Virus record (IMG/VR): IMGVR_UViG_3300014911_000466
Reading direction: 5' to 3' (one strand)
Length of the DNA: 24,322 nucleotides
Source: a virus
The translations under genes and the position numbers were made by a program. The notes below the pieces were generated by a model, which made no database searches, had not been told where the DNA came from, and saw nothing but the letters and a program-made list of their open reading frames with translations. Every line of letters starts with the position of its first letter. Position 1 is the stretch's first letter. Below are positions 4,140 through 24,322 of this stretch, piece by piece.

Positions 4140-4161
4140 AATGGAAAGGAGAGATGGAAAA

Positions 4162-5136
4162 ATGAAACGTGAAATATTGGCTGTATCCCTGCTGTTAACG
4201 TTAGCCTTGGCTTTAACAGTGTCTATGCCTTTAGCTTTGGCTGCCACTGAAGGTTCAAGCTCAGGCACGGCTACTGTAGGAAACGCTGCACCCACAGTTT
4301 CTAATCCCGGCCTGTTTGACAGCGCAGACTCTACAAACTTGAACAATACAAACTTGGATGTCTGGGTGGAATATCATGTTAACTGCACCGTTTCAGACAG
4401 CAACCAGCTTATAGACTTAGTGAATGTAACTTTCATCATTTGGGAAACAACCTATGCAACCGAGTCTTCAGCCGACAATAACGTTAACCACTACACTTTT
4501 GCATGGATAAACAGCACCGACACTTGGGACGAGATTGGGCCGGATGGTTCTGGAGACAGTCACTTGGTGGCTGCAAGCTGCAGTGACCCCGCAGATTTGA
4601 CGGCTACAAGTGGAACCTGGAAGTTAGCGTTTAAACTTCATAAGACAGCAAACTACACCGCCAGCAAAACTTGGACTGTTAAAATAATTGCTTATGACAA
4701 CGCCGGAAACACTGGAACCGTTCAAACGTTATGGTTTGGAGTCAACTTCTACTTGGAGTTGACTGTGGATGACGCTTCCCATGGATGGAGCAGCCTAAGC
4801 CCAGGCGACACAGACGTTCTGATAGATACGCCAGCAGATGGAGATATTGACGTTACCGTAACGGCTAATGCGCCATTCACTCTGCAGGCAAAGGGAAGCG
4901 GGAACTTAGCTGATGGAAACGGAAACGAGATTCCTTTAAGCAACGTGAAAATCCACAAGGACACTCTGGCAAGCGCAACTTCTCTAAGCACAACCTACGC
5001 CGACATTGGAGGCTTAACAAACCTTCCAGCCGGCGAATCTCAAACATACTCGTTTAAACTTTGGATAAGCGTTCCTTCAGGGCAGCCAAGCGGAACCTAC
5101 ACGTACACGCTATACGTGCAGGGAATACAAGCCTAA
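4162..5136 (+). CDS. Secreted two-domain pilin-like protein, 324 aa; putative fibre shaft
   Basis: Signal peptide ending ALA; mature N-terminal strand ATEGSSSGTATVGN; Ig-like domain; C-terminal domain with IPLSNVKIHKDTLASA and GTYTYTLY; no membrane anchor. Confidence 0.75.
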   Translation: MKREILAVSLLLTLALALTVSMPLALAATEGSSSGTATVGNAAPTVSNPGLFDSADSTNLNNTNLDVWVEYHVNCTVSDSNQLIDLVNVTFIIWETTYATESSADNNVNHYTFAWINSTDTWDEIGPDGSGDSHLVAASCSDPADLTATSGTWKLAFKLHKTANYTASKTWTVKIIAYDNAGNTGTVQTLWFGVNFYLELTVDDASHGWSSLSPGDTDVLIDTPADGDIDVTVTANAPFTLQAKGSGNLADGNGNEIPLSNVKIHKDTLASATSLSTTYADIGGLTNLPAGESQTYSFKLWISVPSGQPSGTYTYTLYVQGIQA

Positions 5137-5151
5137 ACTGAGGGATAACCC

Positions 5152-5745
5152 ATGAGAGTCCTGCCTCTCGTTTCCCTACTTGTTTTCTTAGCGGCAGCCA
5201 TGCCGGTTGTTTATGCGTTGCCCAGTATCGGCGTAAGCCACTACAACACGGAAGCCATTATATATATTGGAGAAACCAAAGAGTTTCCGGTTGGAAGAAT
5301 CTACAATACTGGAGACGCGGTTTTAAACGCTTCATGCAATTGGATTCCAGATGGAAACTGCAGTTTAACCGTGAAGGTTAAGCCGGAAAGTTATCTGTTG
5401 AAGCCGGAAGACAGTTTCCAAGTTATCGTAGTTGTTGAATCTCCAAGCGAAGAGCAAATAGGTAACTATTCTGGAATAGTTGAGGTTCTATGTAAGCCAT
5501 TAAACATTACTGGGAATCCCGTTTCTCCCGCTGGGTCGTTGCAGATTAAAATACGCGTTCTACCTTTAACGGATCAAGCAGAGTCCGCAGGAAAAGAAAC
5601 AGGCGGGACTACATTCAATTATGGTTTGGTGGTTATTGTTTGTTTGGCTTTAGGTTCAATCGCTGTCTCTGCAGTTTGGTTCAAGAGAAACAAGAAGCCA
5701 ATTAAGAAGGTTGCTCCTACACGTTTTTTATTGTTTCATTATTAA
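5152..5745 (+). CDS. Signal peptide, Ig-like domain, C-terminal TM and basic tail (chaperone/anchor-like)
   Basis: Ig-like motifs IYNTGD and GNYSGIVEV; TM GLVVIVCLALGSIAVSAVWF; KRNKKPIKK. Confidence 0.75.
   Translation: MRVLPLVSLLVFLAAAMPVVYALPSIGVSHYNTEAIIYIGETKEFPVGRIYNTGDAVLNASCNWIPDGNCSLTVKVKPESYLLKPEDSFQVIVVVESPSEEQIGNYSGIVEVLCKPLNITGNPVSPAGSLQIKIRVLPLTDQAESAGKETGGTTFNYGLVVIVCLALGSIAVSAVWFKRNKKPIKKVAPTRFLLFHY
5724..5730 (+). other. Candidate -1 ribosomal frameshift heptamer T TTT TTA
   Basis: Correctly phased in the 5152 frame (CGT TTT TTA); the -1 frame is the downstream ORF. Confidence 0.5.
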
Positions 5746-6119
5746 TTGTGGTTTTTCTGGCTGGAATCAACGTAAACTATGCTTATGGGCTTGAAAGTTC
5801 CGAAGGGCAAGCAACAGTAATAAAGAAAGGCTCATACTCTACTGGCAACGCAACCATAATTGAAACTTTAGCATACTCTATTGGTGAAGCAATAATAAGG
5901 CTTGTTGGCGGCCCATGGGTTCCCCCAGTTCCTCCTGCTCCTCCAAGCCCAGTTCCTCCTATAGCCATTAGATTTCCGATTGAAAGAATTGTCATTGCCC
6001 TAATCATCATCGTTGCAACCTTGATTGTCATGGGCGTAAGCGAGAAACAACATAGGAAGCCGAAACTTAAACGCAGCAGAAAAAAATGGAGAAAAAAGAT
6101 TAGGCAGCCTTTAGATTAA
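5724..6119 (+). CDS. Membrane anchor with three 13-aa repeats, Pro-rich linker, TM and basic tail (track start 5748)
   Basis: The hydrophobic segment FFIVSLLIVVFLAG begins upstream of GTG 5748 with no canonical start; repeats follow S-x-G-x-A-[TI]-[VI]. Confidence 0.7.
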   Translation, partial: FFIVSLLIVVFLAGINVNYAYGLESSEGQATVIKKGSYSTGNATIIETLAYSIGEAIIRLVGGPWVPPVPPAPPSPVPPIAIRFPIERIVIALIIIVATLIVMGVSEKQHRKPKLKRSRKKWRKKIRQPLD

Positions 6120-6553
6120 GGTTGCAGGTTCAGATGGATTGTGAAGCTTTTTGTTCCGACTGGTTCTCCGCCGTACACATGTAAAGTTAACGTTCCATTA
6201 AGCCATTCTCCGGGCTGAACTGTGGCTCCCTGCCTGTCGTAGGTTAATGTCCAGCCTGAAGGCAAAGCCTCATAGGTTAAAGTCACGTTGAAAGGCATGT
6301 TTCCAGCGTTAAAAATGTTTAGCGGCTTTGAAGTGTCGCTTCCCGGCTCCACGTTTCCCCAATCATAAATGTTTAGGGTTGTGCTGTTCATTCTCTTTCC
6401 ATCCAAGTATACTTCAGCCTCCACTTTCTCGACGACATTCACGCTGACCTGAATGTCATAAACCAGAGAAGTGACGGCGTAGGCAATGCTTGCACACGCC
6501 AAAACGATTAGAACAGCCAACACAAAGCTTACACGCCTACTTCTCCTCAACAT
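6116..6553 (-). CDS. Secreted TasA/AbpA-like fibre subunit (signal peptide, N-terminal beta strand, single beta-sandwich)
   Basis: SD GGAGGTGA; signal peptide ending AYA; motifs DWGNVEPG, NAGNMP and TVQPG; no anchor. Confidence 0.6.
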   Translation of the reverse strand: MLRRSRRVSFVLAVLIVLACASIAYAVTSLVYDIQVSVNVVEKVEAEVYLDGKRMNSTTLNIYDWGNVEPGSDTSKPLNIFNAGNMPFNVTLTYEALPSGWTLTYDRQGATVQPGEWLNGTLTLHVYGGEPVGTKSFTIHLNLQP

Positions 6554-23534: not shown

Positions 23535-23640
23535 AAGAAAGAGCGGAAGAAAAAGAAAGAAATGGGGCAAGATTGGGCCTCCCCATTCGGCTAAGCGTAG
23601 AAGGTGGCTTGCGAAGATTAGGCGTAAAAGAAAGAGGTGA
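23512..23640 (+). CDS. Protamine-like 42-aa protein (not in ORF track)
   Basis: SD GGAGGAGGTGA; MARRKTRRRKSGRKRKKWGKIGPPHSAKRRRWLAKIRRKRKR; 24 of 42 residues K/R, none acidic. Confidence 0.8.
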   Translation: MARRKTRRRKSGRKRKKWGKIGPPHSAKRRRWLAKIRRKRKR

Positions 23641-23645
23641 AAAAA

Positions 23646-24038
23646 GTGGCGAGAAAAATTAGAGTTAGGCGAAGAGGCTATTGGCGCGGGCCCTATGTGT
23701 ATCGTCGCCGAGGCAAGCTGATACGGGTTAAACGCCACTATGTCGGTCCAACAACCTACATGGCGAGAGACGTGGGCAAGCCTGGGCGAGGCAAAAAGCT
23801 GATAGAGATAGAGCCCGGAAAACTTAAGAAGTACGGTTATTCAACTGACAAGAATGCGAGGGCTCGACGTAGGGCTTTAGCCAAGGCGGTTAGGGCGTAT
23901 GGCGCAACATCTGTGTTCAGAATGCTTAACGCGCAGGTTGTGCTGCGTAAATCTGCCAGAACCGGAGAGAGAGCCAGAGACAAGCGCATTTTCAAGGCTG
24001 ACCGAGACTGGGTTAAAAGACGGTACATGCAGAGGTGA
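23646..24038 (+). CDS. Highly basic 130-aa putative nucleoid protein
   Basis: SD GAGGTGA before GTG 23646; R/K-rich; DVGKPGRG, GKLKKYGY, VFRMLNA and IFKADRDWV motifs. Confidence 0.75.
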   Translation: MARKIRVRRRGYWRGPYVYRRRGKLIRVKRHYVGPTTYMARDVGKPGRGKKLIEIEPGKLKKYGYSTDKNARARRRALAKAVRAYGATSVFRMLNAQVVLRKSARTGERARDKRIFKADRDWVKRRYMQR

Positions 24039-24049
24039 ATGACTCACTC

Positions 24050-24322
24050 TTGAAAATACGTAAGTTAGCCTCCACTTTTCTGATTATTTGTTTAGCTTTG
24101 CTTCTCTTTCGCGCTTTACCCAACTTTGCGGGTGCTCGGCCCGCAGAGTGGGTTTTGGTTGAGAGAGGAGCTAATTTTGAGCGCTGGTTTAACGGGACGC
24201 ACTATAAATGGGTTAGTGCCCCGCAGTGGGTTTGGGACGGCTCGGCTTATGTTCCATACATTTTTAAGGATAGATATGCAAGTGAAGGCTATTATCAGGT
24301 TCAGACTGGATTGATAGGAGCG
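24050..24322 (+). CDS. 5' part (signal peptide) of the junction-spanning adhesin
   Basis: TTG 24050 (or GTG 24035, overlapping the upstream TGA) gives MKIRKLASTFLIICLALLLFRALPNFAGA..., in frame with 1..2127. Confidence 0.85.
   Translation, partial: MKIRKLASTFLIICLALLLFRALPNFAGARPAEWVLVERGANFERWFNGTHYKWVSAPQWVWDGSAYVPYIFKDRYASEGYYQVQTGLIGA
24200..24322. repeat. Terminal direct repeat, right copy (circular assembly overlap)
   Basis: Identical to 1-123. Confidence 0.97.

Follow-up and report, generated by a model that had tools for sequence, protein, structure and literature searches.

The viral record IMGVR_UViG_3300014911_000466 (24,322 nucleotides [nt], the whole of which is referred to here as the window) carries, beside the gene for a fibre subunit, two overlapping open reading frames (ORFs). 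The upstream ORF encodes an immunoglobulin (Ig)-like membrane protein, and the downstream ORF, in the -1 frame, begins with a signal-like hydrophobic segment that precedes any start codon. The favored explanation, to which a probability of about 0.6 is assigned from sequence comparison, is programmed -1 frameshifting by the ribosome (-1 PRF) at a U UUU UUA heptamer (5724-5730), producing a fusion of 322 amino acids (aa) in which the third hydrophobic segment would act as an internal signal peptide. This explanation is the most economical because it accounts together for the heptamer and its phase, the survival of the heptamer in the distant relative L023, the absence of a start codon and basic n-region, selection on the downstream ORF, and the existence of a fused orthologue. 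The features of the junction are the following.

5152..5745, plus strand: upstream ORF with a 0-frame product of 197 aa (ORF list)
5703..5705, plus strand: TAA in the -1 frame, 6 codons ahead of the T6 tract
5724..5730, plus strand: slippery heptamer T TTT TTA, at which the -1 shift would occur (from the sequence and its X XXY YYZ phase with the upstream ORF)
5730..6119, plus strand: -1-frame ORF after the slip, 129 codons plus stop (from translation)
5743..5745, plus strand: 0-frame stop TAA, 4 codons past the heptamer, which ends the 197-aa product
5748..5750, plus strand: GTG, the sole canonical start in the -1 ORF, inside the h-region

The 3' end of the upstream ORF reads ...AAG AAG GTT GCT CCT ACA CGT TTT TTA TTG TTT CAT TAT TAA, with the T6 tract at 5724-5729 of the window and the 0-frame codons CGT (5722), TTT (5725) and TTA (5728) across the site. 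The -1-frame ORF that ends at 6119 comprises 131 codons. The -1 frame is open from 5706, and its translation from that position, EGCSYT-FFIVSLLIVVFLAGINVNYAYG-LESSEG..., continues through to 6119; across the site it reads ...ACG TTT TTT ATT..., corresponding to TFFIVSLLIVVFLAGINVNYAYG|LESSEG. The TAA at 5703-5705 closes this frame, and therefore no upstream start is usable for the downstream ORF in the window. The hydrophobic signal-like segment starts exactly at the heptamer. An earlier interpretation made without database searches (the sequence-only reading) had reported the same coordinates, the in-phase U UUU UUA and the start-less -1 ORF, all of which were confirmed from the sequence and the ORF list.

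A tandem slip would join 193 residues of the upstream protein to 129 of the downstream ORF, giving 322 aa with four hydrophobic segments by hydropathy (residues 1-24, 157-177, 193-207 and 277-296). Between the second and third of these lies a loop (KRNKKPIKKVAPTR) with a charge of +7; the C-terminal tail has a charge of +11, and the topology of the fusion agrees with the positive-inside rule. The sequence-only reading had proposed a topologically coherent product of ~322 aa with a basic inside loop.

The position of this heptamer is unusual within the window. Among ~7136 putative codons, 23 heptamers of the X XXY YYZ type are in phase; the one at 5724-5730 is followed by a -1 ORF of 129 codons and the other 22 by -1 ORFs of ≤25 codons, and the combination of a long -1 ORF with a 0-frame stop 4 codons on is found at 1 of the 23. 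The tract at 5724-5729 is the only sense-strand run of six or more T's within the 34 putative genes of the window, in which the TTT TTA dicodon is observed once against ~4 expected, as estimated from codon counts. The lack of such runs in the other window genes is consistent with avoidance of archaeal oligo-T termination signals. The downstream ORF has two more in-phase heptamers in its Lys-rich tail, A AAA AAA (6080-6086) and A AAA AAG (6092-6098). They are followed by -1 ORFs of 5 and 1 codons, a slip at either would only shorten the tail, and both are probably a by-product of Lys codons.

Close relatives of the junction were collected as contigs L001-L016, drawn from no fewer than twelve sample accessions (ENA, JGI and Logan). 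In a large protein collection, homologues of the upstream protein form four clusters (97, 73, 70 and 68% identity), all 195-197 aa long; the close lineages, with upstream proteins of 68-97% identity, are separated by a dS of 0.57-1.3. CG T TTT TTA is in phase, with exactly six T's and no T5 or T7 variant, in every contig of this set that was read at the junction, and the carriers of the in-phase heptamer are the lineages L001, L005, L010, L009/L012 and L013. From the heptamer on, their -1 frames read FFI(V)S(L/S)LI..., up to VYA|VE, VCA|VE or AYG|LE. The 0-frame stop of L001 and L005 is TGA, 3 codons past the heptamer.

Canonical starts of the -1 ORF are not conserved among these lineages. The GTG of the window (5748) is 8 codons past the first TTT, and a start there would yield MVFLAGINVNYAYG, a product without an n-region and with an h-region of 6 residues; it is probably not the functional entry point. 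L013, a member of the window's own 94%-identity lineage, has GCG at this position, and its first 80 codons include none of ATG, GTG and TTG. L010 has GTA, and its first TTG leaves MVGQNLNCVYA, which has no hydrophobic core. In L001 and L005, a TTG overlaps the TGA stop and leaves h-regions of 5-8 residues. No conserved Shine-Dalgarno (SD) motif was found ahead of the -1 ORF when the junctions of the lineages were compared; elsewhere in the element, SD motifs are found before the gene ending at 6553 (GGAGGTGA) and before 5152 (GAGGG). The downstream ORF was missed by gene callers in L001, L002 and L005 and shortened in others.

The downstream ORF nevertheless carries the signature of a protein-coding gene. 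Its mature part has a ratio of nonsynonymous to synonymous substitution (dN/dS) of 0.16-0.28 at dS 0.3-1.3 among the close lineages, similar to the 0.23-0.28 of the upstream gene, and the -1 ORF is open for 128-131 codons in all of them, with every indel a multiple of 3. Because of this dN/dS range and of indels in threes, the downstream ORF is, as judged from its pattern of change, under purifying selection and translated, and not a pseudogene remnant.

The same heptamer is found in a much more distant relative, L023 (NCBI GCA_012974725.1, a contig of 3086 nt), which is syntenic with the window and shares 57% identity in the fibre subunit, ~30% in the Ig protein (P0010) and 26% in a small convergent gene. 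The 3' end of its P0010 gene reads ...GAG ACC ACC CAT TTT TTA TAG, placing the heptamer in the same phase at 1855-1861 of that contig, with the 0-frame stop TAG directly past it (0 codons). The -1 frame of L023 reads HP-FFIAVSIVLLIASSIFYAPSNA|GNSSTGTCTV..., contains no canonical start, and lies in a 363-nt gap in which no gene was called. Nothing in the flanks is shared with the window beyond TTTTTTAT, and the triplet after the T-run is ATA, not ATT. The junction copy is the only TTTTTTA on the L023 contig on either strand; from a background of 1.3e-4 per position, the chance of the heptamer falling in phase within the last ten codons is estimated at ~1e-3. Conservation of the heptamer in homologues, which the sequence-only reading had suggested as a check, thus extends over all close lineages and to L023. 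Three features that define -1 PRF are present: an in-phase heptamer, a long start-less -1 ORF with an early 0-frame stop, and retention of the heptamer while its flanks diverge.

A HMMER search with a profile of the upstream protein returned 80 homologues; nine loci were inspected and fall into four states. Most of the 80 consist of a signal peptide, an Ig-like domain, a transmembrane (TM) segment and a short basic tail, with lengths of 180-230 aa. Because most homologues end just past the TM segment and basic tail, the 197-aa 0-frame product is, by comparison with them, a complete protein of common architecture.

In L017, whose fibre subunit is 67% identical to that of the window, both parts are encoded by one ORF (P0041). 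The order of its parts is Ig domain, TM segment, loop RKHEKTKLNPKPKPKAKA, the segment MLKLCSLLIFLFTLTPLCVA|DPTG, SGSAVVL-type repeats, Pro-rich stalk, TM segment and basic tail. The P0041 protein is found on seven contigs, and no SD motif precedes the internal ATG of P0041 in L017. As P0041 is a single ORF with no SD motif before its internal ATG, the fused topology exists in nature, to judge from its coding sequence. The P0041 gene call is short at its N-terminus (L017 3890-4001), and the frame extends via a signal-peptide-like stretch to a TTG at ~3896. The L017 operon starts with a signal-peptidase-like gene (Peptidase_S26/S24, L017 1-203); the ORF just ahead of the operon in the window (23637-24038), the one ORF scanned there, is DUF5771 and not a peptidase.

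L028 and L029 have a conventional gene directly after the Ig gene, again in the -1 frame, with its ATG in an ATGA overlap. It has an SD-like GAGG upstream and a basic n-region (MKKLHLVSL..., MKRWIHMAIF...), and the signal peptide is followed by a strand motif (SSSGSAVVV, SQGTAEV), a longer ectodomain, a TM segment and a basic tail. L020, L024, L026 and L027 encode nothing comparable here and have no bearing on the question; in L027, an ordinary overlapping ATG comes together with a basic n-region and an SD motif. Relative to L028 and L029, the window clade and L023 have lost exactly the ATG, the SD motif and the basic n-region, and in both the heptamer sits where the h-region begins, right after the basic tail of the upstream protein. 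Read from gene arrangement, the operon family shows coupled, frameshifted and fused states side by side. A profile search with the downstream ORF matched only the known lineages and P0041, and scans of the GTDB genome collection and of IMG/VR, with two profiles each, gave no match. The sequence-only reading had regarded homologues with separate canonical starts and no heptamer as contrary evidence; this arrangement exists in the distant L028 and L029 and is absent from the close lineages.

Several observations weigh against frameshifting. U UUU UUA is not known to work in any archaeon. Within the close clade, retention of the heptamer is by itself weak evidence (p ~0.14), as suggested by sequence statistics, because the lineages are close and identical codons are common: 6 of 24 junction columns vary among four close lineages compared with a mean of 9.4, and 52% of invariant residues have the identical codon in all four. 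The heptamers of the window clade and of L023 may descend from one shared ancestor and so represent one event, not two origins. Three lineages have a TTG or GTG adjoining the upstream stop, and the AT(T/A) directly after the T-run is conserved (AUU in the window clade, AUA in L023) and could in principle be a near-cognate start. No conserved downstream RNA structure was found with RNAalifold (-9.8 kcal/mol), and single-sequence folds of the window and close relatives were no better than shuffles (z from -1.05 to +1.25). Only L023 has an 8-bp hairpin (UAGCAGUA...UACUGCUA, L023 1862-1884; local fold -9.6 kcal/mol, z = -2.55), which begins 1-2 nt past the heptamer and is thus nearer to it than the usual spacer of 5-9 nt. 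Upstream, the SD-like GAAGG 13 nt 5' of the site is not conserved. There are no rare codons at the site, TTA being the most frequent Leu codon in the codon counts of the window, and pausing at a rare codon is therefore unsupported as a stimulator. For fucA1, the one demonstrated archaeal case, a review describes rare codons together with a putative stem-loop (PMC8211752), neither of which was found at the window site.

Neither a stimulatory RNA structure 5-9 nt downstream nor an upstream SD-like stimulator was therefore found for the window site, and folding of the window and its relatives agrees with the sequence-only reading, which had seen no convincing downstream stimulator. Absence of a stimulator lowers the expected efficiency and is no bar to classification as -1 PRF, as some known sites have no stimulator. 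With no conserved stimulator and no rare codon, the efficiency of frameshifting is probably low.

Under -1 frameshifting, most ribosomes would read 4 more codons past the site and stop, releasing the 197-aa membrane-anchored PapD/ASH-like Ig protein. In a minority, tRNA-Phe (P site) and tRNA-Leu (A site) would slip back by one base, and reading would resume at AUU 5730 to make the 322-aa product. The basic cytoplasmic tail of the first protein (KRNKKPIKKVAPTR) would then provide an n-region, or inside loop, to the hydrophobic segment that follows (FLIVSLLIVVFLAGI). This segment would re-cross the membrane and has a signal-peptidase-type site at its end (AYG|LE, or VYA|VE among relatives). The slip would thereby export a small ectodomain, carried on a Pro-rich stalk and followed by a TM anchor and a basic tail, in which the strand motif that opens the adjacent mature 331-aa fibre subunit occurs three times. 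In L028 and L029 the mature anchor comes from a separate gene; signal peptidase could release the same anchor from the fusion. We infer that the purpose would be to hold the fibre anchor at a fixed low ratio to the Ig protein, and a low efficiency would suit a protein needed once per fibre.

A broader proposal, for which the odds are put at somewhat less than even on comparative grounds, is that a conserved, stimulator-less -1 frameshift in an archaeal mobile element has wholly replaced initiation for a secreted membrane protein. The downstream gene would have given up its start codon and the basic n-region of its signal peptide and would borrow the upstream tail through the slip, which would set both topology and stoichiometry in a fibre system of the cell surface (a rare fibre anchor and an abundant Ig protein).

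The most serious competitor is separate initiation, which is considered unlikely. The downstream ORF would be translated from a near-cognate AUU at 5730 (AUA in L023), or from TTG or GTG by termination-reinitiation, to give a protein of 120-130 aa, and the heptamer would be incidental. The ATGA-coupled separate genes of L028 and L029 are its positional equivalents, L001 and L005 have TTGA and the window TAA-TT-GTG at the corresponding point, and conservation of AT(T/A) after the T-run extends to L023, where AUA overlaps the stop as ATAG in a manner comparable to ATGA. AUU and AUA are, however, very poor initiators. L013 and L023 have no canonical start, and the start of L010 leaves no hydrophobic region; where canonical starts exist, they give h-regions of 5-8 residues and no basic n-region, unlike the MKK and MKR of L028 and L029. 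Other genes of the element have an SD motif, but none is found here at a usable spacing, and separate initiation leaves unexplained the six T's and the phase that L023 and the window clade have in common.

Transcriptional slippage on the T6 tract, in which RNA polymerase would add one U, predicts the same fusion with the junction RFF-IV instead of RFL-IV and is considered improbable. The site is a homopolymer and the only sense-strand T6 within a window gene, and no ribosomal stimulator was found, all of which would suit slippage. Efficient realignment in bacteria involves runs of ~9 or more, longer than T6, and slippage by the polymerase needs neither the X XXY YYZ phase nor the A at position 7, both of which are kept in L023.

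Still less credence is given to the absence of any recoding, either through a recently disabled gene (a 1-nt deletion in a P0041-like fusion, or loss of the ATG) or through an assembly error or phase-variable tract at T6. Relatives have each of the two arrangements intact: the fusion in L017, and a separate gene with an ATG in L028 and L029. Against this, T6 is present in every contig read, from at least a dozen sample accessions and four diverged lineages, the ORF is open for 128-131 codons with indels in threes and dN/dS of 0.16-0.28 at dS up to 1.3, and the same state persists in L023. Two options listed in the sequence-only reading fall on the same ground: a homopolymer assembly error is contradicted by T6 in every contig read at the junction, and phase variation of the T-tract is unlikely with T6 in every assembly read.

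The T-rich element might alternatively be a transcription signal, as a TATA-like box for a leaderless downstream mRNA or as an oligo-T terminator that lowers read-through, and this too is very doubtful. The sequence TTTTTTATT resembles an archaeal TATA box, oligo-T is an archaeal termination signal, and sense T-runs are otherwise avoided in window genes. A start site ~25 nt downstream would fall past the TTG of L001 and L005, and L013 and L023 have no start, so that neither the distances nor the starts fit a leaderless transcript, which was rejected. Termination within the upstream ORF would give non-stop transcripts, and a translated, conserved hydrophobic segment starting at the T-run would be left unexplained.

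Two other entry points were discarded. The ACG start at 5721 after AAGAAGG, raised in the sequence-only reading, was rejected because L001 has GCG and L023 has CCA in its place, and because AAGAAGG is not conserved; a longer overlapping -1-frame gene would depend on a TTG 18 codons ahead of T6 that is present only in L001 and L010, with TAA closing the frame in the window and in L005. The central proposal of that reading, a -1 frameshift at U UUU UUA, is supported at the level of sequence by the conserved heptamer, the start-less ORF, L023 and the P0041 fusion of L017.

In an AlphaFold2 (AF2) model of the upstream protein, with a predicted local distance difference test (pLDDT) score of 85, a signal helix precedes a nine-strand sandwich that spans residues 26-137; residues 157-179 form a TM helix, and the basic tail is KRNKKPIKKVAPTRFLLFHY. 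Foldseek searches of the sandwich against the PDB matched the PapD-like/ASH/MSP fold, including CEP192 ASH, the HYDIN PapD-like domain, FaeE, FimC and DraB, with E values of 1e-5 to 1e-7 (~1e-5 to 1e-6 for FaeE, FimC and DraB) and target-normalised TM-scores of 0.4-0.66. This match between a model and known structures is a fold resemblance only. Atlas look-alikes of the upstream protein are mostly archaeal and include proteins with HYDIN_VesB_CFA65-like_Ig, and neither the upstream nor the downstream protein matched a Pfam or NCBIfam family at E ≤0.01. A role as periplasmic chaperone of chaperone-usher pili does not fit: such chaperones require two Ig domains that form a cleft for the subunit, with a donor G1 strand, and a partner usher, whereas the window protein has a single Ig domain and a TM anchor, and there is no usher-like gene among the Pfam hits of the window.

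The downstream ORF has the following parts, all on the plus strand.

5730-5768: h-region, with a predicted cut at the signal-peptidase-like site AYG|LE between 5789 and 5790 (from alignment)
~5796-5903: three S/T-x-G-x-A-T/I-V/I strand repeats
~5913-5963: Pro-rich stalk, followed by a TM segment (~5979-6038) and then the basic tail (from hydropathy and charge)

In the segment FLIVSLLIVVFLAGINVNYAYG, a candidate Sec-type cleavable signal peptide, the h-region and AXA-like site are conserved (VYA|V, VCA|V, AYG|L), and a basic n-region is available to it only if the upstream tail is joined by frameshifting. The strand motif of the repeats also opens the mature fibre subunit, at the level of sequence, in the window (SSGTATV), L017, L023, L028 and L029. 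The AF2 model of the 331-aa fibre subunit (pLDDT 50) was too poor to use.

Conservation across this region is mosaic. The 331-aa fibre subunit (4141-5136) is 97-98% identical among lineages when the window is compared with L001, L005 and L009, the anchor genes (5152-6119) are 60-73% identical among lineages that share the 97-98% identical fibre subunit, and the first ~160 nt of the Ig gene are near-invariant among the close lineages. This pattern of identities suggests recombination or diversifying selection on the anchors.

Convergent with the anchor gene is a gene for a 145-aa secreted protein (6116-6553, minus strand) with weak NPCBM_assoc/NEW3 and choice-of-anchor-D hits, whose stop overlaps that of the anchor gene and which is syntenic in L001, L005 and L023. 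The element also encodes an archaeal-type integrase (PF16795, E 2e-35). An ORF of 96 codons runs off the 3' end of the window (24035-24322) and is frame-matched with an ORF open at the 5' end (1-2127). Joined, they would encode ~804 aa, near the 815 aa of the gene upstream of the fibre subunit in L017, and their frames fit a circular record of 24.3 kb.

Use of -1 frameshifting by other archaeal genes was described as an open question in a 2021 review (PMC8211752). If correct, the present interpretation would place the site among the very few conserved frameshift signals that Archaea are known to have. It would also be an unusual use of recoding, in which an internal signal peptide owes its n-region and its membrane topology to a frameshift. 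The kind of signal is already known; what is unusual is the outcome of the shift and the comparative series around the site. This series, within one operon family, comprises an ATGA-coupled pair, a frameshifted pair (kept to ~30% identity) and an in-frame fusion, and it provides a short and cleanly testable construct for archaeal shifting on U UUU UUA without an RNA stimulator. It also bears on annotation, as gene callers missed or shortened the downstream gene in several assemblies.

The closest archaeal precedent, also cited in the sequence-only reading, is the alpha-L-fucosidase gene fucA1 of Saccharolobus solfataricus, described as the one case of -1 PRF in a cellular archaeon for which there is experimental proof (PMC8211752, PMC1616953). 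As in the window, the second ORF of this archaeal gene is in the -1 frame, the two ORFs share a few tens of bases that include an X XXY YYZ heptamer, and relatives have full-length in-frame orthologues, represented here by P0041. The fucA1 heptamer is of the A-run type, whereas that of the window is U UUU UUA. FucA1 is a cytosolic enzyme, and no function is known for its upstream product alone; the 0-frame product of the window is complete, and the shift would add two membrane crossings and an ectodomain. The fucA1 frameshift was seen in only two S. solfataricus strains (PMC8211752), whereas the window site is kept down to ~30% protein identity. Other archaeal -1 cases, in haloarchaeal tailed viruses and a chelatase, are predictions (PMC8211752).

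The alphavirus 6K/TF site, as in Sindbis virus, has the heptamer U UUU UUA and a downstream stem-loop, and features of the nascent membrane protein contribute to shifting (PMC8682741). Its heptamer is identical to that of the window, and the shift likewise occurs amid membrane-spanning segments. The alphavirus structural polyprotein is also processed by signal peptidase. Alphaviruses differ in being eukaryotic RNA viruses with a defined downstream stem-loop. In Sindbis virus, the force-generating TM segment is ~44 residues before the site and outside the exit tunnel, whereas the TM segment of the window protein ends ~15 residues before it and would still be in the tunnel; a nascent-chain pulling force is thus not simply transferable, and its extension to the window would be speculative.

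In the logic of a fixed low ratio of long to short product, the window resembles the -1 frameshifts of G/GT-type tail assembly chaperones in tailed phages and haloarchaeal viruses, including those of HVTV-1 and HCTV-1, -2 and -5 (cited in PMC8211752). These too belong to a structural operon of a mobile element, and a complete short protein gains a C-terminal module. The tail assembly chaperones are, by their description, unrelated cytoplasmic proteins, and the proposed product of the window is a membrane protein with an internal signal peptide. A further comparison is with the gene pair of L028 and L029, which has the same order as the window: pilin, Ig-anchor, and a -1-frame gene with a signal peptide, a pilin-like strand motif, a TM segment and a basic tail. 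The L028 and L029 ectodomains are longer (184-220 aa) and only weakly similar to that of the window (hidden Markov model E 0.02-0.05), and their genes have the ATG, the SD-like motif and the basic n-region, and no heptamer.

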